Part shown: piece after piece, positions 2,906 to 21,098 of the stretch
How the letters are laid out: each line of letters opens with the position of its first letter
Numbering within the stretch: position 1 is the first letter of the stretch
NCBI GenBank assembly: GCA_963796105.1
Contig: CAWCKJ010000002.1
Coordinates: forward strand, 421,785 to 485,784
Reading direction: 5' to 3'
Length of the DNA stretch: 64,000 bases
From: a candidate division FCPU426 bacterium
Lineage (GTDB): Bacteria; Oederibacteriota; Muellerivitia; Muellerivitales; Muellerivitaceae
Program-made: the position numbers and the translations under genes
The notes under the pieces: model-generated
Databases searched by the model: none
Told to the model about the DNA's origin: nothing
What the model saw: only the letters and a program-made list of their open reading frames with translations

Positions 2906-5900
2906 ATGTTTCCTAAAACGCATAAAAAAATATTTTTATCGGTACTTTTCAGTTTTTGTTTCTTATCGACCTTTTTTATTTTTTTCCCTGAAGGGGTTTT
3001 GGCCCAAACGGCAACGCCCACACCAACTTCCGTTTGTCCGTCAGCCGTTCCCATTAATTTGGGGGATTCAGTCCTCGGAAGTACCGTGGGTTCGCCAGAA
3101 AGTTTTAATACTTCTTGCCAAGGGCCGGACAGTCCCGATAATTTGTACGTTTTTACACTGCCTTACCCTGCAAACGTGGACATCAATACTTGCTCCGCGA
3201 ATACCGATTTCGACACGGTTTTGACACTCTTGAGCAGCTGCGATCCTCCGGTTGAGGTCACTTGTAACGACGACAGCTGCGATTTGCAATCCGATATCTC
3301 GATCACGTTGCCGGCCGGCACTTACTACATCGTCGTGGGCGGATTTCAGGGGGACTCCGGCCAGTACCAGCTGAGCCTGACCGGGGCCCTTATCAACACA
3401 CCGACGCCTTCCCTGACGCCGACATACTCCCTGACGCCCACCCTTATCGGGACACCCACAGCGACTGGCACGCCCACTTGGACCCCAACCAGTACTCCGT
3501 CCTTCACTATCACGCCTATTCCAACCCATACCCCCCAGTTTTCCCCCACTGCCGGACCCGGGACAAACCTGGATAACCTGATCACGGATGGAACGGTTTC
3601 CGCCATGGCGGTCACGGGCAACACGCTATATTTGGGCGGAACTTTCAACTTTATAGGGCCATCCACGGGCGGAGGAGCCTGTTTGAGCCCTTCCACGGGT
3701 CTTCCAAATCTTTCCTTTCCCCGGGTGGCTGGTACCCTAACCACGGCCATACCCGACGGAACGGGAGGCTGGTTCATCGGCGGGCAGTTTACCTGTTTGA
3801 GCGGACAGCCCCGTTTGAACTTGGCCCATGTCCGTTCCGATATGAGCGTGGACCCCATTTGGTCGCCCCAGGTGACCGTCCAGGTTAATAGCATGGCACT
3901 TTCCGGGGGGGTTCTTTTCGTCGGGGGTTCCGCGGGGACTGTCGATGGACAGCCGGCCAATTACGCTTTCGCCGTCAATTCGGCCACGGGAATCCTTCTT
4001 CCGTGGAATCCTGGATTGAACGGCCCCGTGAGCGCCATCGCGGCCTCGGGAACGACGGTATTCCTGGGCGGGTCCTTCACGACCGTCGATGGACAACCCG
4101 TGTCTTACTTTGCCGGGGTTGATTCCGCCGGCGGTTCTAACATTATTTTGAGCCCCAATTGTAATGGTTTCGTCGACAGCTTATTGTCCTCCGGCAGCAC
4201 CCTCTTTTTAGCGGGCGGTTTTACCACGGTGGGAGGGCAGTATCGAAGCGAGATCGCGGCTTATAACCAGAATACCGGCTCCTTGCTCTCGTTCGGCCCG
4301 ACGATTACCAATGGCCCCATCAGAAGCATGGCCTCGTCCGGAACCACCCTTTACTTGGGAAGTGCGGGCAGTTTCAGCGTCAACGGCACATGGTGTTACT
4401 ACCTGGGGGCGTTGAACCCATCCGGCACTCTCTTAAGCTGGACCCCTTCCCTCAGCGGCTCCGTCTCGCAGATAGCCTTATCCGGTTCCACCCTTTACGT
4501 CGGAGGTTATTTCCTGCTTGCGGGAGGGCAAACCCGCGATTACATCGCAGCCTTTGACGGGGGGACGGGAAACGTGACTTCCTGGAACCCGGGCGGGTAT
4601 GGCGGGACCGGATGTGTCGCAACCGACGGCACTTGGGTGATCGTTGGAGGAAGTTGGCAAAGCGTTGGGATGCAAAGCCGCACCAACCTGGCTTCCATCG
4701 ATATTCCCTCGGGCAATTTACTGCCCTTTAATCCCGCCACCAACGGGAAAGTGGAAAGTCTTTTCCCGTACGGTTCAAATATCGTGATCGGCGGTAATTT
4801 CATCACCGTGAACGGTACCAGCCAGAATTACCTGGCCATGGTGGATGGGACCGCGGGAACGCTCCAGTCCTGGAATCCCAACCCCAATGGAGAAGTTCAT
4901 ACGCTTCTAGAACAGGGAACCACTCTTTATGTGGGCGGCTCCTTTACCACCATTGGCGGCGCGCCCCACAACAACGCGGGAGCGGTCCTGCTTTCGAATG
5001 GGGCCGGATTGGCCTGGGACCCCAACGCCCATTTGGACGTTTACGCTCTGGCGTCGTCGGGTACGACTATTTTTATCGGGGGAAGGTTCACCAGTCTCGG
5101 GGATTGGGCCGTCTCCAATTTGTCCGCGGTGGATTCCACGACCGGTTCAAACTTGGGCTGGCCCGTAACCGTGAACAACGATGTTAGGTCCATTGTCGTG
5201 GACCCCACCGGCCTCTACGTGGGGGGGGATTTCACCAGCATAAACGGGACGGCGCGCAATGAAGCGGCGGCATTGAATCCCGCTACGGGACAATTGCTGG
5301 CCTTTAATCCCAATGTCAACGGCACGGTCTACGATATCCTGCTTTCCAACCCCATGGTGTATATGGGCGGGTCTTTTAATATGGCCGGGGGTCAAAACCA
5401 TCAGAACCTCGCGGCGGCCTATAATGCCGATGGATCGATTCTGCCCTGGAGTCCCAATGCCAACTCCAGCGTCTTTAGTCTGGCCCAGGCCGGATCGACG
5501 ATTTTCGTTGGTGGTTCTTTCAGCCAACTCAACTGCTGGCCTTACAATGATTTAGGCTCGGTTTACGGTATGACTCCCGTTGCCACCCCAACATCCCTGA
5601 ACACCTTCACGCCCACATCCACCCCCTCCCTTACCACCACACCCTTCGGGACCACCACTTTTACGCCGACTCCAACAAACACTTCCACGCCTAGTTTTAC
5701 ATCGACCCCCAAACCATCCTGGACGCCCATCCCCCCTGGAACTTCCCAAGTGATCACGTTCCCCATTACGGATGGTACGGTTTATTCACTGGCTTCCTCG
5801 GGATCAACCCTCTACCTGGGAGGCAACTTTTCCCACGTAGGACCCCAGGTGGGTCCGGCCGCGCCGCTGGATGGCACTACGGGCGCGCTCATAACGCCAT

Positions 5901-8900
5901 TCGTCCAATTGGCGAACTTATCCGTGCGCGCCATCGTTCCGGATGGCTCGGGGGGATGGTACCTGGGCGGGGATTTCCAATGCGCCCAAGGGGTTACCTG
6001 GAACCATTTAGCCCACGTGTTCTCCAATGGGACCCTTGACCAAAATTTTGGGCCGGTGGTAAACGGGCCTATCGATGCCATGGCGTTGAGCGGCGGGGTT
6101 CTTTATTTAGGTGGTTCCTTCACGTCGGTGGATGGAAATAGCCGCACAAACCTGGCATCGGTGGCATTGGATGGAACCGACTTGCCTTGGGCGCCAACGG
6201 CCAATGGCGCCGTCAGCTGTCTCTTAGCCGCGGATGGGCAGGTTTTCGCGGGCGGGTCCTTCACCTCTATTAATGGTTCTCCCTGCTCTTGGGTGGCTTC
6301 CCTGGATCCCAATACGGGCCTGCTTAATAATTGGTCCCCGAATCCCGGCGGGAGCGGCGGGTATGTAAGTTGTATGGCATCTTCAGGGACTACCCTTTAC
6401 TTGGGCGGTTACTTTGCAAGCATGGGGCCTAAGGTCCGGAATTATTTAGCTTCGGTGGATATGAATACCGCCGAGGTTTTACCCTGGAATCCCCTGCCCA
6501 ATAATCCGGTTTATGCCATGACGGTGAACGGCACCAACCTTTATTTCGGGGGTAGTTTCAGCCTGGTTGGAAGCACAACCCGGAATGGCGCGGCGGCGGT
6601 GGACTCCACCACCGGCGTTCTTCAATCCTGGAACCCCAACACCTCTTGGGTCTTTGCCATGGCATCCGCGGGAAACACCGTGTACTTGGGCGGTAATTTC
6701 ACGACCGTCAACGGCCAGGCCCGGAACTACCTGGCCGCGGTGGACACTTCCAACAATCTCTTATCCTGGAATCCCAGCGCCCAAAATGAAGTGTTCGCGC
6801 TAGCCCGGCAGGGAACCACGGTTTACGCGGGGGGCTCGTTCAATTCCATCGGCATGAGTCCCCGCAGTGACGCGGCCGCTTTTAACACGGCCACTGGAAC
6901 CCTGCTTTCCTGGGGTCCTACCGTTATTGGTTCGGGTGTCTATGCTTTGTATACCTCCGGTTCAACCGTTTATATGGGAGGATCCATCTATACCATCAAC
7001 GGCACGAACTGTAACAACCTTGGGGCGGTTGACGGCACCACTGGGAACTTGCTTTCTTGGGCGCCATCAGCACCTGGTAACGTGTATAGCCTGGCCGGAG
7101 AGGGCACGACGATTTACGTGGGTGGAAGCTTTACCCAATTGGCCGGACAAACCCGCAATTACGCCGGCGCCCTGGACAACAACGCCAATCTCCTGCCGTG
7201 GAACCCCAATGCCAATTCGACGGTTGAGAGCATGATTGCGTCCGGAACGACTATATTTATGGGAGGTAATTTCACGAGCTTTGGGGATTGGGTAAGGCCC
7301 TATGTGGGGGCGGTGGATTCAATCACCGGCTCCACACTCGCGTGGAATGTCACTCTCAACGGCCCCGTCAGCACAATGGCAATGGATGGGCCTGCGCTTT
7401 ACCTTGGAGGGGCCTTCACCACCGCCAATGGGATGGCCCGGCAGGGTGTCGCCCAGGTTGATCCGGCCAGTGGGACCTTGTCATCTTGGAACGCGAATTT
7501 AATTGGCTCGGTGGCAAGCATCCTGCCCTCCGATCCGGAAATATATCTGGGCGGTAATTTCTCCTCGGTGGGCGGGCAAACCCGCGGCAACCTCGCGGCG
7601 GTTTATAACGCCGATGGATCGGTGCTTTCCTGGAATCCCATGGCCAGCAACAAAGTGAATGCTCTCGCCCAGACCGGGACTACGATATATGTGGGGGGAA
7701 CTTTCGGAACCATCAGCTGCTGGCCTTCCTCGAACCTTGGTTTAATTACCGGGATGACACCCGTTGCAACGGCCACGCCCAGTAATACGACGACCCCCAC
7801 TCCGACTTCAAGCCTCACTTCCACCCCTTTTGGCACTTCGACATTCACCACAACCCCCACATTTACTGCTACCCCCACGACCAGTTCCACTCCCAAGCCG
7901 ACTTGGACCCCTACGGTCAATGGCGTTCCTGCTTTAGCCCCGGTTCCGATCACCAATGGAACCCTGGGTGCATTCGCCCAATACAACGGTATTGTCTATT
8001 TCGGGGGAAACTTTTCGCTCGTGGGACCGCGACTGGGTCCGGCGGCACTCATTGATGGAAACACCGGGTTGGTCCAGACCTCGATCCCTCAATTCGCCAA
8101 TGGGAATGTTCAAGCCATCATCCCGGATGGTTCTGGAGGATGGTTCCTGGCGGGTAATTTCCAGTGCGTTCAAGGCTTGGCCTGGAACAGGCTGGCGCAC
8201 GTTTTCGCCAACGGTAACCTGGATTCAACCTGGGGCCCAGCGGTGAACGGGACCGTATCCGCATTGGCTTTGAGCGGCGGGGTTCTTTATTTAGGCGGTT
8301 CCTTCACGTCGGTGGATGGAAATAGCCGTACAAACCTGGCATCGGTGGCATTGGATGGAACCGACTTGCCTTGGGCGCCAACGGCCAATGGCGCCGTCAG
8401 CTGTTTATTGGTCCAAGGCGGGCAAGTGTACCTGGGAGGAGCTTTCACCACGGTGAATGGAAGCACCCGAAACCATGTGGCTTCAGTGGACGCCACTGCC
8501 GGACAGTTGAGCACATGGGATCCAAACACGAACCAGCCGGTCAACGCTTTGTCCTCCGCTGGAACCACGGTTTTCCTGGGCGGCTCCTTCACGGCGGTCG
8601 GGTCCAAAGTGCGCAATTACCTGGCCGGAGTGGACGCTACCACCGCGGCTGATTCAGGCTGGGTTCCCTCCCCGAACAATACTGTTTATTCAATGATGGA
8701 AGCGGGAACTACACTTTATGTCGGCGGCTCGTTCAATATGGTCGGCGGGAATAGCCGGGGTGAGGGAGCCGCATTTAGCACAGTTGACGGTTCGCTTCAG
8801 GCTTGGAATCCGCAAATTATATACGGGAATATTACTACCATGTCTTCATCCGGTACGACCGTCTATTTGGGGGGCGGTTTTACGATGGTCAACGGTCAAA

Positions 8901-11900
8901 CTCGAAATTATTTATCGGCGGTTGATTCCACTTCAGGAAGCCTGCTGAATTGGAATCCAAATGCCCAAAGTTCGGTCAACACGTTGGCTCAGCAGGGGGG
9001 CATTGTTTACGCGGGCGGAACATTCATGTCAGTGGGTATGGTCAGCCGCACTAACTTGGCGGCATTCGACCCAACAACGGGCAATATCTTATCTTGGACG
9101 CCGACTGCTTCCGGTGGAACGGGAGTCAATTCCATTGTTCCCATCGGATCAAACCTTTACATCGGCGGTTATTTTACAACTGTAAATGGCCAAACCAGGA
9201 ATAACCTCGCGGCAGTGGATACCTCCGGCAATCTTTTGGCGTGGAATCCAAATGCCAATGGGGGTTATGTCATCTCCATGTGCGCTAATGGTACGACGCT
9301 TTATTTAGGCGGTAATTTTGGGACCATATCGAGTGCCACGAGGAGCACTCTCGCGGCAGTGGATACCTCCGGTAATCTTTTGCCTTGGAATCCAAACGGG
9401 AATTTCCTTGTCGGCGCATTGGTATATGCCGGCGGGTATGTTTACGCGGGTGGAGAATTTACCGGAATTGGTGGACAGCCTGTCAGCAACTTGGCCAGGT
9501 TGGATCCTGTGACAGGAAACCCCATCGGCTCTATAAACGCGAACAGTTTCGTGAATACCCTCGCCTCTGACGGCCAAAGACTCTATGCGGGAGGACAATT
9601 CACCCAAATTAATGGGGTTTCCAGCCCGGGGATGGGAATGGTAGATCTCGGGTCTGGAACCGTCATTCCCTGGCCATCCGCCATTGCGGGCGGCCAGGTG
9701 AAAACACTTGGAGTGTCGGGTAACGTGGTTTACGCGGGTGGGTATTTCACCACTGCGGGATCACAGCCGCGAAACCGATTGGCGGCCTTTTACTATATTG
9801 ATGGAACCCTTCTGTCTTGGAATCCTTCCGTCGATAATATCGTTCAAACCCTCATGCCTTATAACGGGGAAGTTTACATAGGCGGGCAGTTCCAAACCGC
9901 GGATTGCTGGCCCTCCGATTCGCTTTATGCTTGCGCAGCGGTGACAATGCCTTCCGTAACGCCAACATTTACCGCTACAAATACTTCCACTAATACTCCC
10001 ACCAGCACCTCGACGAATACAATTACCTTAACGCCTACTGCCACAAGCACTCCAACTGAAACCTTTACGAGAAAACCCACGGACACTCCTACCGACACCC
10101 CTACTTTGACCCCTACGCCAACTATTACCAATACCGTTACCGAGACATTTACGAATACGCTCACGAATACAATGACCAACTCGCCCACGATAACGGATAC
10201 GCCAACGATAACGCCCACTTATACGCCGACGAATACCCTAACGGATACCTTGACTGAAACACCGACTGATACACCTACCCCCACCTCAACTCCAACGATT
10301 ACCGACACACCAACCGTTACGGATACCCCAACTGTGACACCGACTTATACACCGACTGACACCTCGACAAGCACTTTGACGCCGACCCTGACATGGACAG
10401 CTACCGACACTTCGACATCGACACCGACCATTACGGACACTCCAACGATAACGGATACGCCCACGGTAACGCCGACCTATACTTCAACGAATACCCTAAC
10501 GGATACTTTGACTGAAACACCGACTGATACGCCTACCCCCACCTCAACTCCAACGATTACCGACACACCAACCGTTACGGATACCCCAACTGTGACACCG
10601 ACTTATACGGCGACTGTTACTCCGACAAACACTTTGACGCCGACCCTGACTTGGACGGTTACCGACACTTCGACATCGACACCGACCATTACGGCCACTC
10701 CGACGATAACGGATACGCCCACGGTAACGCCGACCTATACTTCAACGAATACCCTAACGGATACTTTGACTGAAACACCGACTGATACGCCTACCCCCAC
10801 CTCAACTCCAACGATTACCGACACACCAACCGTTACGGATACCCCAACTGTGACACCGACTGTTACTCCGACAAACACTTTGACGCCGACCCTGACTTGG
10901 ACAGTCACTGATACATCGACTTCTACACCAACGGTAACTGATACGCCGACGTTTACTGATACGCCAACGGTAACGCCGACCTATACTTCAACGAATACCC
11001 TAACGGATACCTTGACTGAAACACCAACTGATACGCCTACCCCCACTTCAACTCCAACGATTACCGACACACCAACTGTTACGGATACCCCAACTGTGAC
11101 GCCGACTTATACGGCGACTGTTACTCCGACAAACACTTTGACGCCGACCCTGACTTGGACAGCTACCGACACTTCGACATCGACACCGACCATTACGGAC
11201 ACTCCGAAGATTACGGATACACCTACGATTACGCAGACTTATTCGCCCACAAATACCCTCACGAACACATGGACCGAAACGCCGACCGATACACCTACTT
11301 CCACCTCAACTTCGACCATTACCGACACGCCAACTATTACGGATACCCCGACAGTAACCCTGACTTTTACTTCAACCGACACTCAAACGGTGACATCCAC
11401 TCCAACCTTGACGTTGACACCCACTTCGACGCTCACCGAAACTTCAACAAACACTATTACAGATACACCGACAATTACTTTCACCGATACTCCGACCAAC
11501 ACGCCCACTAATACGTCCACGAGTACCCTGACATCAACAAGCACGGACACGCCTACTTCCACCTCAACCTTGACCATTACCGACACGCCAACGATTACGG
11601 ATACTCCAACGGTAACGCCAACTTATACCCAAACGAACACTCCAACGATCACACTCACCCCGACCTTGACTTGGACAGTCACTGATACATCGACTTCTAC
11701 ACCAACGGTAACTGATACGCCGACGTTTACTGATACGCCAACGGTAACGTCCACCTATACGTCAACCAATACGCTTACGAGCACCCTTACCGAGACGGCG
11801 ACGGACACGACTACTTCCACCTTAACTCCGACCATTACCGACACGCCAACTATTACGGATACCCCGACAGTAACCCTGACTTTTACTTCAACCGACACTC

Positions 11901-13060
11901 AAACGGTGACATCCACTCCAACCTTGACGTTGACACCCACTTCGACGCTCACCGAAACTTCAACAAACACTATTACAGACACACCGACAATAACTTTCAC
12001 CGATACTCCGACCAACACACCCACTAATACGTCCACGAGTACCCTGACCTCAACAAGCACGGACACGCCTACTTCCACCTCAACTTCGACCATTACCGAC
12101 ACGCCAACGATTACGGATACCCCGACAGTAACCCTGACTTCTACTTCAACCGACACTCAAACAGTGACATCTACTCCAACCTTGACGTTGACACCCACTT
12201 CGACGCTCACCGAAACTTCAACAAACACTATTACATACACACCTACAATTACTTTCACCGATACTCCGACCAGCACACCCACTAATACGTCCACGAGTAC
12301 CCTAACCTCAACACCCACCGATACCGTCACGCCAACTGTAACCTTGACGATAACCGACACATCAACGATTACGTATACTCCCACTCTGACGCCGACATTT
12401 ACTTCGACCGACACCCCGACGGCGACATCTACTCCATCATCGACCTTAACATCAACTGATTCCCCGACTGAAACGGCCACGAATACCATTACCAATACGC
12501 CGACAGATACAGCAACACCTACACCAACTGGTACCCCGACGGACACACTGTCGGCAACGCCCAGCCCCACTTCCACTAATACACCAACTTCCACCCTAAC
12601 CGGCACCCCCACGAATACCACTACCCTGACGCCAACATCCACGCTTACCAACACGAACACTATCACTCCAACGTTCACGGCCACGGACACCGCAACTGAA
12701 ACATCCACCGAAACACCGTCGGAGACTCCCACGGAAACTCCAACGATTTCAATGACCATCACGCCTACCGTCGGCATATCCCTGGCTTTGGGCGCGAACC
12801 GCTTCAACGACCAGTCCGACCCGCCATTGAGGATCGATTACTGGGTGAAAAACGGGGGAAGCGTCCAGGTGCAGGTCTATAACGTCGCAGACCTACTCAT
12901 CAGGCATCTTTCCAGCCAAAACCAGACCATCGGGGCCTATTCGATTTATTGGGACGGGAAGGACGATACAGGGGCACAGGCGGATTCCGGCCTTTATTTG
13001 ATCGCCGTCATTGAACCCAACCGGGTGGAAGTCAAGAAAGTGCTGGTGCTGAAACAATGA
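2906..13060 (+). CDS. Giant secreted surface protein (3384 aa): signal peptide, PPC-like Cys domain, three beta-propeller-like repeat modules, ~940-aa Thr/Pro stalk, C-terminal FlgD-Ig/T9SS-like domain
   Basis: Signal peptide ...GVLA|Q; recurring LYxGGxFxxvxGxxRxxLAAVD...WNP repeats; three modules each running ITxGT...CWP; C-terminus [18 protein letters not shown]...SGLYL...KKVLVLK. Confidence 0.85.
9950..12770 (+). repeat. Intragenic Thr-rich tandem repeat with ~258-bp (86-aa) period
   Basis: ACGAATACCCTAACGGATAC recurs at 10229, 10487, 10745 and 10991; ACTCAAAC(G/A)GTGACATC recurs at 11381, 11897 and 12155. Confidence 0.9.
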
Positions 13061-15015
13061 GCAATAAACACTTATCACCCCAGAGACTCAGAGACACAGA
13101 GAGATTCATTTTTGACAAAACCTGCGCTTTTAAGATTTTGGCTGGTTTGCTTTTATGCCTTCCAACCATGCCTGCGAATGCAAGCCCATTAACAACAGGC
13201 GCGGATTTCCTGCTGATGACCACCGGCGCGAGGCCGGACGGCATGGGCCAGGCTTTCAGCGCCGTGGCGGACGACATCAACACCCTTTCCTTCAACCCGG
13301 CCGGGTTGGGAAATATCCGGATGCCCGAGATAGGGTACGGCTACGAGAGTTTCAACGCGGGCATCAATTACAACTTCGTCGGGGCGTCCATCCCCATGGG
13401 AACCACCGGGGTTTTGGGCCTGGGTTACATCAGCATGGGGACAGCCCCGTTCAACAGTACCGCCAACCCATCCACGCCGAGCGTTTCAGCCCAGGACCAG
13501 GCCCTCGTGGGGGGATGGGGAAGATCCTTCTACGACCTGCACGTGGGAGCGGCCGTGAAGTACATCCTCCGCCAACTGGACAACGTCCAGGGCAACGGGC
13601 TGGGTTTTGACCTGGGCCTTCGGTACCGGATCATGCCGAGCCTGACTTTAGCCGCGAGCGCCATGAACCTGGGGGCTGGAATCAAGCTCGCCAGCCTGGA
13701 GCCCCTGCCGACGCAGTTGAACACGGGCGCGGCCTGGACCGCCCTGGAGATGCCCCTCCACAGCCTTACCTTCATGGCCAATGGCGTTTTAAACGTCAAC
13801 ACCAACACCCAGGCGCTGGGTGTCGGGACCGAGTATTGGTACCGGGACTTGTTCGCCTTGAGGGCGGGTTACCTGTCCAATTCCCGAGATGACGGTTTCA
13901 ACTCGAGCGGATTTTCAGCCGGCGCGGGAATCAGGATTTCCTTCCTCCAGCTGGATTACGCCTTCCAGCCCTACAATACCCTCGGGATGGTCCACCGCGT
14001 CTCGGGCATCTTGCGGTGGGACGGGCCATGGGTTGCGGGCGGGGAACCCAACGCCCCAAAATACGTGAACGCGGTTGAGACGGCCGGGGACATCGAGGTC
14101 CGCTGGGATAAATCCCAAGGCCCGGTCCAGTCCTATGAGGTCCTGGTCCAGCCCCTGGATGGGAGCGATTTGTTCGTCTCGGAGCCCGTGGTTAAACCCT
14201 TTTATGTTTACAAGAATGACAAACCCGATACCCTTTACCGCATCTCGGTCCGCGCGGTCAATAACGGAATCCGCAGTTTTCCCTCCAATGAGACTTATCT
14301 CGAGAGCCGTACAGTCCAAATTGCCGGGCAAAATACCGGTTTAGGCGCTCAAAATGCCCCGGCGCTTGCACCCGTTCCCCGCGAACAACAAGGACTTGAG
14401 ACCATCCGCGTAGTTCCTCCGCAAGGAATCGGAGGGAACGGTAATATCGACCTGAACGCGGATGTTGTCGGTTTGAGGGTTTCCTGGAAAATCCCGCCTT
14501 TCGCCACCTCGGGCTATAACCTTTACAAGAAATCCCCCTCGAACCATGTGGAAAAGGTCACCCTGGAGCCGAAGAAAAGCAACGTCGTTTGGGTGACGGA
14601 CACTTCCGGCCTTCAGGGCTGGGAATGGATCGTGACCGCGGTCACACCTGACGGGAAATCCGAAAAAGCCCTGGGCCATTTCCTCTGGTATCCCTCGCCC
14701 CGGGAAGCGGAAATCTTAACGGCTCCTCCGGTGGTGAAATTGAACGCCAGCCCCCAGGCAAGGAGGAAGGTCTTTTTGGACTGGGATCGGAACCCGTCGG
14801 AGGCGGGCTATGCGCTATTCGTCAGCCGGGAACCGGATAATGTGTACGAGCTTTTTGAGGTGTCCAAGAACAGTAACCCGAATGTGTTGCTTCAACTCTC
14901 CAATAATCACAGTCCCTATTTTTTTATGGTCGTTCCCAGAAACGCTGATGGGACTTGGTTGAATCGCTCCAATGAAGCCAAGGTGGAGCCCTTCTCGGAT
15001 GTTCCGAAACAATAA
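13057..15015 (+). CDS. PorV/PorQ-family outer-membrane barrel with C-terminal Fn3-like domains
   Basis: [36 protein letters not shown] is the PorV/FadL-like N-terminal motif. The barrel ends near [12 protein letters not shown] and is followed by Fn3-like W...Y...Y segments. ATGA overlap with the upstream gene; exact start uncertain. Confidence 0.75.
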
Positions 15016-15181
15016 GCGCGGATAATCCCTGTTTGTTCTCTCCTGAATCCGTTTCCTTTGTTGGCAGGAAATACAAGCTAATTCTTTTCGCGAATACTCG
15101 GAAGCCCTTATATTCCAAATATATTGTCAAGAATGTGGTAATGTATAAATCAACAAATGCCAAGTAAGGAGGTCATTCGAT

Positions 15182-15223
15182 ATGGCAGCTAAGAAAAAAG
15201 TCGCGAAGAAGAAAAAGAAGTAA
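15182..15223 (+). CDS. 13-aa lysine-rich micropeptide MAAKKKVAKKKKK
   Basis: Near-perfect SD TAAGGAGGT (15165-15173) 8 nt before the ATG; mixed AAG/AAA codons; TAA stop followed by an intrinsic terminator. Confidence 0.65.
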   Translation: MAAKKKVAKKKKK

Positions 15224-15249
15224 ATAACGTTCGCAATATTCGTTGAATC

Positions 15250-15281
15250 AAGCCTGGACACTTTTGTTCAGGCTTTTTTTT
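15250..15281 (+). terminator. Rho-independent terminator
   Basis: AAGCCTGGACA-cttt-TGTTCAGGCTT followed by a T run. Confidence 0.8.
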
Positions 15282-15438
15282 GTCTCGGGCACCAAAGATG
15301 CCGTTTAACTTGCGTGAAAGAATGAAGGTTTCTTACCGGAAATCCAAATGATTCCTGTCCGCTTGCAAGGCCGGCCTATTCTAAGTTATGCTTCGATGGG
15401 TATAGAGATAAGGCCTAAATCGGAGAACAAAAAAACCG

Positions 15439-17933
15439 ATGAATCGAAGAAAATCCCCAATTTTTCATGGCTTTTTCCGGCTGGCTTTACTGGGTTTAGC
15501 GTTGTTTTCATTCTTGCCCCATTCCCGGGCTGAGGCGGCTGGCCACCAAATTTTGAAAGGCCATGTGCCGGAGGCTGTTTCAACCGCGCCCCTGGTGGGG
15601 CCCCTTGAAGATACTACCAAGTTCCATTTGGCCATCGGACTTCCCCCGCAAAACCAAGCTGATTTGGAGAACCTCCTTAAGGATTTATATGATCCCAGGA
15701 GCACCCTCTACAGGAAATTCCTCACGCCGGAAGAATACGCGATGAGATTCGGCCCCTCCGAGAGTGATTACCAGGCCGTGGCTGACTTCTTCCGATTGAT
15801 GGGCATGAGGGTGGATCGGACTTATCCCAACAGGCTCTTGATGGATGTGAGCGGGACGGCAGGGGATATTCGAAGGGTTTTCCATGTCCAAATGAACAAA
15901 TACCGCAGGCCTGACGGGAGTTTGTTCCAAGCTTCTGACAGCGAACCCTCTCTCGACTTAGATATCTCCATACAGCACGTGAGCGGTTTGGACAATTTCA
16001 ACCGCGTCTATCCGAAAATGCGGAAACTGACCCGGTCCTTTAGAAAGTATGCTGGCGGCTTGGGCGCGAAAAACGGGTCGGTTCAGGTGGGCGTGACCCA
16101 ACTATACCGGGGAAAGGATTTGAGGGATTCTTATGTCCCGAATCTTCCGGCATCGGTGAATGGAGCGGGACAATCCGTGGGATTGCTTGAATATGACGGC
16201 TGGTATGCTTCCGATTTAACTTACTATGAGACCCATTGGAGTCCCGCGATAACAGCACCCGCTCCAATAACCTATGTTGCGGACACCTATAACAGTTTTA
16301 ACGGGACCCCGATTTACGCGCTGGATACCGACGAAGTTTCCTTGGATATAGAGATGGTGGTCTCCATGGCGCCGGGAGCGCAGGTCGTAGTCTATGAGGC
16401 TTCCCCTGACGACCCCAGCCTGAGCGCTTCCGCAAACGACATTCTCGCGGCCATGGCCACCACCCTCAGGTGCAACCAGGTCAGCAGTTCCTGGGGAGGA
16501 TATGGTGACACCACTACGACCAACCTAATGAACCAGCTGGCGTCACAAGGCCAGGCCTATTTCGAGGCGTCTGGCGATTACGGGGCCTATGTCAGGGGAG
16601 ATCCAACCCCCTCGATCGCGGCGGCGGGAGACCCCAGCCTCTATACCAGCCAGTTTGAGACCTTGGTCGGGGGGACGGCCTTGTCCACCACGAATCCAGC
16701 CGGAACTCCCGCGAGCATATCCTATATCTCCGAGAAGACCTGGAACGATTCCATTGGCGCGAGCGGGGGAGGTTCCTGCACGAACCTGATGAACATTCCC
16801 TCCTACCAGGCTCCCGTCCCCATGACAACAAATGGCGGATCCACCCAATGGCGAAACCTGCCCGACGTTTCGGCCGCGGCCGCCAGCCTGCTTCTGGTTT
16901 CCGAAAATTATAGTACCACCGGTAAGGCTGTTTCCTATTTGGGTTTGATAGACGGAACCAGCGCTTCCTCGCCCCTCTGGGCTGCTTTCTGGTCCCTGGC
17001 CAACCAACAGGCTAGCGCATCAGGCAAGGGTCCCGTTGGCTCGGCCAACCCCCCCTTTATTCCCTGGCTCTCACACCGACCTCGTACGCAAATGATTTTC
17101 ATGATATCAACGACGGGAGCAATAATAATTACACGTTTTCCGGACCCTATACGGCTGTTACCGGCTACGACCTGGCCACAGGTTGGGGAAGCCCTAACGG
17201 GCAAAATTTAATCAACGATTTGGCCGGAGTCGCCCGAACCGCTACCCCCACCGCTACCCCCACGCGGACGCCGACCGCGACCGCTACCCGCACCATGACT
17301 CGCACCAAGACCTGGACACCGACCATTACTTTCACCCCGACGATTACCCTTACGCCCACGATTACCAATTCACCCACTATTACGAACACGCCAACCATTA
17401 CCCTGACCCCCACTTGGACCCCGACAGTAACGGACACACCCACCAACACCCAGACCTATACTCCGACCGATAGTTTCACCCCCACGAACACCCCCACCGT
17501 GACCGACACACCCACCATCACCCCCACACCCACAATTACTGACACGCCCACAGATACCTACACCCCGACTATAACTCCAACTCCCACGATCACCGATACA
17601 CCGACCGCGACACCCACTCCAACCCCGACTTTCGTGCCTGGGCTTCCTTTTTCAGTTCAAGCTTTCCCGAACATCTCCACCGCCGGGGCGCCCATCCAAT
17701 TCAACGTGAACCTGCCGATTCCCATGAGGGTTTATTTGGTAGTCTTTACGTTGGCGGGTGAACCGGCTTTCGCGACCCATGTCCAATATTGGGAGGGCGC
17801 CAACAAGTACCAATGGAAGCCAATGAACCAAAATGGGGAACCGCTCGCCAGCGGGCTATATATCTACTATGTCCGGGCGGTCAACGGGGACCAAGCCTAC
17901 AAAAAAATTGGGAAAATACTCATCTCCCACTGA
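15439..17933 (+). CDS. S53 (sedolisin/kumamolisin) protease with pro-domain, Thr-rich linker and FlgD-Ig/T9SS-like CTD; one frameshift at C7 run 17049-17055
   Basis: Catalytic motifs EVSLDIE, SGDYG and GTSASSP. Adding one C restores NPPLYSL...[10 protein letters not shown]...[11 protein letters not shown] in frame with ORF 17220-17933, which ends FPN...SGLYIYYV...GKILISH. Confidence 0.85.
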
Positions 17934-20225: not shown

Positions 20226-21098
20226 ATGAAAATTCATTCTAAGGATTTCCGTGTCAAGGAAGGGGAAGAGGTCCGTCTTAAGAATTGGCCTACCAGGATA
20301 AAACCTTATTATGAAACAAAGGAAAAATACAAAAACATCCTGGAAGAGCAAATTGAAAGTCTTAGTTCCCTCCAGGGGCTTTTTTACGCCCACAATCGTT
20401 ACTCCTTGCTCCTGATATTCCAGGCTATGGACGCGGCGGGGAAGGACGGGGCCATCAAGCATGTCATGTCGGGAATCAATCCCCAAGGCTGCCAGGTTTC
20501 CAGCTTCAAGCGCCCCAGCGCGGAGGAACTTGAGCATGATTTTCTCTGGAGAACCACCCGCAACCTGCCGGAAAGGGGAAAGATCGGCATTTTTAACCGC
20601 TCTTATTATGAGGAAGTCCTCGTCGCTAGGGTCCATCCGGAGGTATTAAAGGGAGAACAGATTCCGGAAGAATTGATCGAGAAGGACAGCCTTTGGATAG
20701 AGAGGTACCGCTCCATCGTGGAGTTTGAGAAGCACCTTTACCGCAACGGGACCCGGATCCTGAAATTCTTCCTCCATCTCTCCAAGGAGGAACAAAGGAA
20801 ACGTTTTTTGGCCCGCCTGGAGGACCCGGAAAAAAACTGGAAATTCAGCATGAGCGATATCCAGGAAAGAAAATATTGGAAGGAATACTGGAAAGCCTAT
20901 GAGGAATGCCTGGGTTCGACAAGCACCGAGAAGGCACCCTGGTACATCGTGCCTGCGGACGATAAACCGAACGCGAGATTGATTATTTCACATTTGATCC
21001 TTCATGCCCTCGAGAACCTTAAAATGAGTTATCCCAAACCGGATGAGGGGCGTAAAAGGGAATTGGAATCCATCCGGAAAGAGCTGAAGAAGGATTAG
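20226..21098 (+). CDS. ppk2: Polyphosphate kinase 2 family protein
   Basis: [11 protein letters not shown]alker [38 protein letters not shown]. Confidence 0.92.

Follow-up and report, generated by a model that had tools for sequence, protein, structure and literature searches.

The window, the whole 64,000-nucleotide stretch of DNA analysed here from the genome of a candidate division FCPU426 bacterium (denoted as G000), carries on its plus strand a micro-gene of 13 codons plus TAA, MAAKKKVAKKKKK, at positions 15182..15223, as established by reading of the open reading frame and by its homologues. The start codon ATG lies at 15182 and the stop codon TAA at 15221-15223 (window coordinates). 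The codons after ATG are GCA GCT AAG AAA AAA GTC GCG AAG AAG AAA AAG AAG, giving eight Lys residues in 12 post-start codons (five AAG and three AAA) and a peptide mass of approximately 1.36 kDa if Met is removed. A Shine-Dalgarno (SD) site, TAAGGAGGT, occupies 15165..15173 on the same strand with an 8-nt spacer to ATG. Its pairing energy with the anti-SD is -12.3 kcal/mol, which is equalled or bettered by 115 of the 3160 long ORFs of G000 when the best of six starts is taken for each, placing it in the top 4%. A predicted intrinsic terminator on the plus strand (15250..15281), recognised by its fold energy and family conservation, consists of an AAGCCTG...CAGGCTT stem followed by a T run. The stem, at 15250-15275, comprises 11 pairs (-15.7 kcal/mol, z -4.1) and is the sole terminator-like site within 14000-16500. 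The SD, spacer, ATG, lysine content with mixed AAA/AAG usage, TAA and terminator named in the preliminary description are thus all present in the sequence. A predicted extended -10 element, TGGTAATGT (TG-G-TAATGT), is located at 15136..15144 on the plus strand, 37 nt before the start codon. A generic sigma-70 scan did not list a promoter at 15136-15144, and the predicted promoter is accepted because its motif is conserved in the family, not because of that scan. From these signals alone, we infer that the micro-gene would be highly expressed. The string TAAGGAGGT followed by 5-10 nt and ATG occurs once in the window, against 0.03 occurrences expected. A search for ORFs of 8-31 codons that follow an SD and consist of Lys to at least 50% found one in the 4.98-Mb G000 genome, none in its reversed sequence, and a single case across 10 block-shuffled G000 genomes.

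The micro-gene sits in a 420-nt AT-rich gap between two genes that are absent from the relatives' loci, and the GC content across 15000-15299 is 34-42%, compared with 51% genome-wide. The upstream gene (13057..15015, plus strand) encodes a PorV/PorQ-like protein with an fn3 domain, which scores above the cut-off of NF033709. The downstream gene (15439..17933, plus strand) encodes a pro-kumamolisin (S53) peptidase. Its frame changes near 17050, with the end of the peptidase and a Thr/Pro repeat tail continuing in the other frame to 17933, which reflects either an assembly error or a broken gene. Ahead of the PorV/PorQ-like gene, positions 2906-13060 of the plus strand encode a secreted-type protein of 3384 aa, in which many short Gly/Trp repeats are accompanied by a Thr/Pro repeat region of about 800 residues. 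Outside the window, at about 158460-158920 of contig C2, a 75-nt unit is present in seven or more head-to-tail copies.

The preliminary description had proposed a search of related genomes for an SD-led Lys-rich micro-ORF. Of the 30 other genomes in the same family, 22 yielded one in a pattern search based on the SD, start, Lys runs and stop; among the 16 with a completeness of 90% or more, the figure is 14. Four patterns failed to find the micro-gene in G001 (93% complete and the only genome of the same genus) and G006 (98% complete), and the six other family genomes without a match are 65-85% complete. BLASTN of the region against G001 matched the peptidase alone. Across the phylum, about 59 of 99 genomes have an in-frame member, as judged by reading of the matched strings; ATG-only patterns under-count, with TTG, GTG or other variants present in three of five apparent negatives, and SD-dependent patterns under-count lineages without SD sites. 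The 25 family genes span 13-20 codons and start with ATG, GTG or TTG. The TGnTAATGT that had been guessed to be promoter-like proved to be the motif of the family: TGnTAnnnT occurs 29-41 nt upstream of the start in 22 of the 25 genes (shuffled mean 1.9, maximum 7 in 1000), and of the three genes lacking it, one is truncated at a contig end. The motif is not shared beyond the family; 26 of 169 genes overall have it, against 10.5 in shuffled sequences. A terminator-like hairpin follows 23 of the 25 family genes, frequently with an AAGCC...GGCTT base. In the wider set, such a hairpin follows 135 of 171 genes, compared with 53 of 162 upstream regions and 51 of 171 shuffled ones, under a loose rule and with significance inflated by kinship. 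Ten family genomes share the upstream gene and seven share a converging succinate-dehydrogenase gene, while G000 and others have unrelated neighbours. Since the neighbours differ within the family, the cassette travels as a unit. Dispersed second copies are present in six genomes (G010, G026, G036, G042, G048 and G078). In another family of the phylum, four loci (L142-L145) carry a variant that contains Asp, MAKKKKGKDKDKKKK; these genes stop at TGA or TAG and have a terminator in common. The possibility that the micro-gene is a collapsed longer ORF is countered by the recurrence of an equally short gene in 22 other assemblies of the family. The homologues, the synonymous variation described below, and the conserved promoter motif and terminator support the proposal of a stand-alone micro-gene with its own signals, and confirm it as a real gene.

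The synonymous-change check suggested in the preliminary description gave a clear direction. Among 86 identical-peptide pairs, 274 of 1160 codons differ synonymously, and the 30 nt past the stop are 49% identical; the related genomes are not independent, which overstates the significance of these selection figures, although their direction is plain. The triplet AAA-AAA-AAA is entirely missing from 132 genes; when the Lys codons were shuffled 2000 times within each gene, it arose 24 times on average and never fewer than 12 times. Ordinary G000 genes also avoid it, with 12 occurrences in 322 Lys triplets against about 48 expected from codon use. The micro-genes therefore behave as translated sequence, and the synonymous variation together with the full avoidance of AAA-AAA-AAA points to selection on translation. 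The composition set comprises 174 genes encoding 132 distinct peptides of 9-23 aa, and the net charge is +7 to +11 in 163 of the 174. Lys accounts for 65% of the residues, Ala for 24%, Thr for 5%, Pro, Val and Gly for about 1% each, and Arg for 0.8%. Phe, Trp, Tyr, Leu, Ile and Met together contribute 6 of 2436 residues, and 19 Arg stand against 712 Lys when only Lys beyond the five per gene that the patterns can fix are counted. The search definition forces Lys-richness, the SD and a Met-Ala/Pro start, but not the scarcity of Arg and bulky residues. The Met-Ala start in 172 of 174 genes is accordingly set largely by the search, and the peptides end in Lys. No signal or leader sequence and no hydrophobic face was found in the 174-gene set. 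Judged by these sequences, charge and small residues are kept, rather than length and register. Longer proteins of these genomes, such as a DksA-like protein, also bear this same Lys/Ala start as a tail, an arrangement resembling that of Streptomyces DdbA as described in PMC3643593. A search with a long protein of the same Lys/Ala start led to an EF-Tu-domain-2-like hypothetical family, which was uninformative.

A pattern scan of 12 of the 64 parts of GTDB yielded at least 118 stretches, corresponding to an estimated 640 or so overall. Although the pattern left the middle gap free, so that one third would be expected in frame, 105 of 120 matches are in-frame ORFs of 9-19 aa, and the other 15 are starts of long proteins. 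By record title, the bacterial carriers belong to Acidobacteriota, Methylomirabilota/Rokubacteria, Binatia, Nitrospiria, Verrucomicrobiota, Planctomycetes, Brocadiales, Elusimicrobia, Omnitrophota, Gemmatimonadales, Goldbacteria, Patescibacteria and Nevskiales, and the archaeal carriers (DPANN) to Woese-, Nano-, Aenigm- and Iainarchaeota. Cultured carriers are Solimonas fluminis (L076), Sinimarinibacterium thermocellulolyticum (L110) and Limisphaera sp. VF-2 (L089). In metagenomes, a strict pattern of 13 codons matched 127 times, and the five peptides concerned are encoded by 32 different sequences. The distribution outside the micro-gene's own family is patchy: a sample of the Patescibacteria phylum contained two in-frame genes in 201 genomes, and the class of Solimonas none in 151, a lower bound because the pattern reaches 18 aa and misses the 19-aa Solimonas gene. 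At ten loci the gene is repeated in tandem, in two or three copies that are each preceded by a separate SD. Neighbours are constant within lineages and different between them (124 flanking ORFs, 63 loci). Such low-complexity peptides may have arisen several times, in which case one function across all lineages would not be assured; the sequences are too simple to tell one shared origin of all lineages. At four loci (L039, L043, L067 and L072), the micro-gene lies right behind a class II tRNA synthetase gene, with secA next in three of the four; L043 is titled Nanoarchaeota, and its context is of the Patescibacteria type. The micro-genes of L082 and L092 have tRNA-Lys genes less than 600 nt away, with L092 also adjoining a class I LysRS gene, and at L082 an SD-led acidic 22-aa ORF lies immediately upstream.

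Pfam and NCBIfam gave no match at E 10 for four members of 20-23 aa, and the PDB, searched over chains of at least 20 residues, gave none for one member or for a 35-member profile. In an exact look-up in a protein collection, one of four members of at least 20 aa was present, as a 'hypothetical protein'. Searches of full-text literature yielded no account of the family; paywalled papers and lists of small proteins in supplements, which lay outside that scope, may include members. Small proteins are often basic, according to PMC8195425. The widespread family of 9-23-residue oligolysine peptides is thus apparently undescribed. New here are its breadth across phyla and domains, the finding that a conserved cassette moves as one, and the testing of four ideas: polyphosphate binding, compensation for lost polyamines, attenuation and an acidic partner.

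Of the three functions raised in the preliminary description, an H1-tail-like nucleic-acid binder is the best fit to the sequences. We consider the chances about even that the peptide is a sequence-nonspecific polycation for nucleoid DNA and RNA, comparable to a detached histone-H1 tail or a gene-encoded polyamine. A monocistronic mRNA of about 130 nt would be made abundantly, and Met removal would leave a 12-residue peptide with eight Lys that stays unfolded in the cytoplasm. This peptide may bind and charge-neutralise nucleoid DNA, and probably RNA too, with many copies bridging phosphate backbones, such that dose and charge would count and the exact sequence would not. Since length varies while charge is kept, genes are doubled, and shape-giving residues are lacking, a bulk polycation fits better than a one-site ligand. 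The signs of dose counted in favour are the rank of the SD site, the tandem copies and the dispersed second copies, and those of mobility are the separate transcription unit and the neighbours that change between lineages and within the family.

Protamines are Arg-rich, and protamine-like peptides and the phage microvirus J protein are short DNA-binding packaging polycations. Oligolysines of charge +3 to +10 condense plasmid DNA, histone tails carrying +8 to +14 (PMC2790876), and AlgP KPAA peptides bind DNA in vitro (PMC9239181). Compaction by MDP1 needed at least 38 tail residues, with 10 already raising DNA affinity (PMC10810275), and K8 packs plasmid less stably than K16 (PMC4991294). By analogy, the tail-length need of MDP1 and the lower stability with K8 would speak against a DNA-packing role. 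The bacterial H1-like regions (AlgP KPAA, MDP1/HupB PAKK, Chlamydia Hc2 and Streptomyces DdbA) are Lys/Ala-rich and Arg-poor like the micro-gene peptides, and are described as disordered, variable in repeat number, and binding or compacting DNA in PMC9239181, PMC10810275, PMC2848022 and PMC3643593. They are, however, 40-150-residue tails of folded or larger proteins, whereas the micro-gene product is the whole of 8-22 residues from its own gene; the peptides therefore share the Lys/Ala-rich, Arg-poor composition of the class but not its repeat of at least about 40 residues on a larger protein. They also differ from these Lys/Ala/Pro tails in being about 65% Lys with little Pro (1%). Polyamines and synthetic oligolysines are likewise short polycations of charge +3 to +10 that condense DNA electrostatically (PMC2790876); unlike polyamines, the polycation of the micro-gene would be made by the ribosome from a chromosomal gene. 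Composition is no guide to DNA as the specific target, since any +8 peptide also binds rRNA, tRNA, acidic proteins and membranes. No DNA-binding-protein gene was a constant neighbour among the flanking ORFs of the loci, and the histone fold (PF00808) was found in none of five genomes. G000 has four HU/IHF genes, and a spermidine-synthase-family gene (PF01564, a family that includes paralogues) is present in all 99 phylum genomes, so the peptide fills no obvious gap. On the PF01564 count, the argument that it replaces polyamines was rejected.

A different account of the same composition is an unrecognised tiny ribosomal protein or ribosome-bound factor filling an rRNA pocket, in the manner of bS22, eL41, bL37 and bTHX. 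These proteins are also very small, basic and missed by annotation; bS22 and eL41 are 55-65% basic and went unnoticed until cryo-EM (PMC10085706). The near-universal presence in the more complete family genomes, the stand-alone gene with strong translation signals of its own, and the Met-Ala N-terminus with a Lys C-terminus all agree with this account, the N-terminus with the reservation made above. Known members, however, have a fixed length, a mixture of Arg and Lys, hydrophobic residues and a defined rRNA site, whereas the peptides vary in length (13 to 20 residues inside one family), contain almost no Arg or hydrophobic residues, and are encoded in two or three copies per genome in several lineages. 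In the small ribosomal proteins of G000 itself, Lys and Arg are about equal (bL32 9/8, bL34 7/11, bL36 7/6 and bS22 8/9). G000 also has a separate bS22 of 34 aa, encoded on the minus strand at L452:241-342 (contig C3 of G000), which the PDB search recovered (E 4e-4 to 8fmw_V) and which Pfam (PF08213) and NCBIfam miss. The micro-gene peptides matched neither PDB chains of at least 20 residues nor Thx. Among 74 short basic ORFs near 159 loci, bL28 was the only ribosomal protein recognised, on the opposite strand at four Rokubacteria loci (one checked). The presence in nearly all members of the lineage thus stands beside the patchiness outside it and the absence of a sequence match, fixed length, hydrophobic contacts and single copy, and we regard a ribosomal role as unlikely. 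The peptide could instead bind another polyanion: polyphosphate, an acidic protein tail or partner peptide, or the envelope as a cationic peptide. The Lys/Ala/Pro tail of AlgP links polyphosphate granules to the nucleoid (PMC9239181), and some phage look-alikes adjoin endolysins. G000 has two PPK2 genes and no PPK1, and one of the former lies 5 kb from the micro-gene (20226-21098, plus strand; an ADP-polyphosphate phosphotransferase of the PPK2 family above the cut-off of NF042973). The test for co-occurrence with polyphosphate kinases nevertheless came out negative: of the 99 genomes of the phylum, 11 carry PPK1 and 36 carry PPK2, and both PPK1 (PF02503) and PPK2 (PF03976) are missing from ten carriers of at least 96% completeness (G017, G032, G036, G037, G042, G078, G081, G082, G091 and G092), so the peptide need not act on polyphosphate. 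A convincing acidic micro-ORF behind an SD, no more than 600 nt from the micro-gene, was seen at one of 159 loci (L082). With the peptides devoid of a signal, leader or hydrophobic face and with a transporter or protease never a constant neighbour, we judge binding to such other polyanions to be quite improbable.

A short ORF rich in one amino acid and followed by a terminator is reminiscent of an attenuator leader, and the micro-gene has this form. Translation of its eight Lys codons, rather than the peptide, might accordingly be what matters, whether for attenuation, for sensing or sequestering Lys-tRNA, or as a short ORF within a small RNA, and tRNA-Lys genes do lie less than 600 nt away at two of 60 scanned loci, one of them with LysRS. 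Attenuator leaders such as the thr leader (RF00506), however, have a cognate operon and an antiterminator, both of which are lacking here. No lysine-pathway gene lies downstream; which gene comes next differs between loci, and many of these genes are encoded on the opposite strand. The ORF region is unfolded (z -0.2), and the predicted folds contain no pairing that overlaps the ORF as an alternative to the terminator. RF00506 scores 20.6 against a cut-off of 55, and Rfam gave no match above cut-off at 14900-15500 of the window or in 20 loci. The peptide is kept while its codons and flanks diverge, and the Ala/Thr spacers and Met-Ala start are also kept, which a codon sensor would not need. We consider this account highly doubtful. 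As for a chance origin of the ORF in A-rich DNA between genes, or its creation by faulty assembly, A-rich DNA readily yields Lys codons. This reading, to which we assign a negligible probability, is already contradicted by the rarity of such ORFs in the window and in the reversed and shuffled genomes, by the recurrence of the cassette in 22 other assemblies, by the missing AAA-AAA-AAA, and by the in-frame endings of the GTDB matches (105 of 120), compared with 17 of 120 short ORFs, and mostly long proteins, under a loose viral pattern.

If the peptides do act as a polycation on nucleic acids, the idea extends to a broader one, which we advance tentatively and at below even chances: many uncultured bacterial phyla, some archaea and some phages may make in bulk, from a stand-alone gene, an oligolysine of 8-22 residues as a main chromatin or general nucleic-acid counter-ion. 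Within this counter-ion reading, and with the same reserve, the family might have escaped notice, as gene callers pass over genes so short and the peptide is destroyed by trypsin. Such a nucleoid component would be about one tenth the size of any H1-like bacterial protein and common in soil and groundwater phyla and in DPANN archaea, and cells would be able to make a polyamine-like cation on the ribosome, tuned by gene dose. Should the peptide be ribosome-bound instead, it would rank among the smallest ribosomal proteins known.

Look-alikes also occur in phages. Because phages build no ribosome yet carry them, they are counted in favour of a nucleic-acid polycation; the differences in sequence (Tyr/Cys and Gly) and the location of most sites away from capsid genes are counted against it, and the phage peptides may be convergent with the cellular family. 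In IMG/VR, 32 of 41 matches are short ORFs. The best two BLASTN matches in annotated phage genomes are Lys-rich parts of longer hypothetical genes, and not micro-genes. The types at L282, L285 and L304 were set aside, as they look like ends of longer repetitive ORFs. Among 21 viral loci, three (L286, L291 and L305, encoding MAYKKKGKKK, MAYKKKGNGKKKK and MACKKKCGGKKKK, respectively) have the micro-gene just before scaffold/capsid genes, two of which (L286 and L291) also place it after the portal gene. At another four, a capsid or terminase gene is no more than 1.3 kb away; at the remaining loci the micro-gene neighbours endolysins, tail ends or replication genes, or its identification is doubtful. 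At L281, L283 and L295, a MACKK(K)GGKKKK type adjoins endolysin genes, in some cases with its own terminator, and is possibly a cationic lysis helper.
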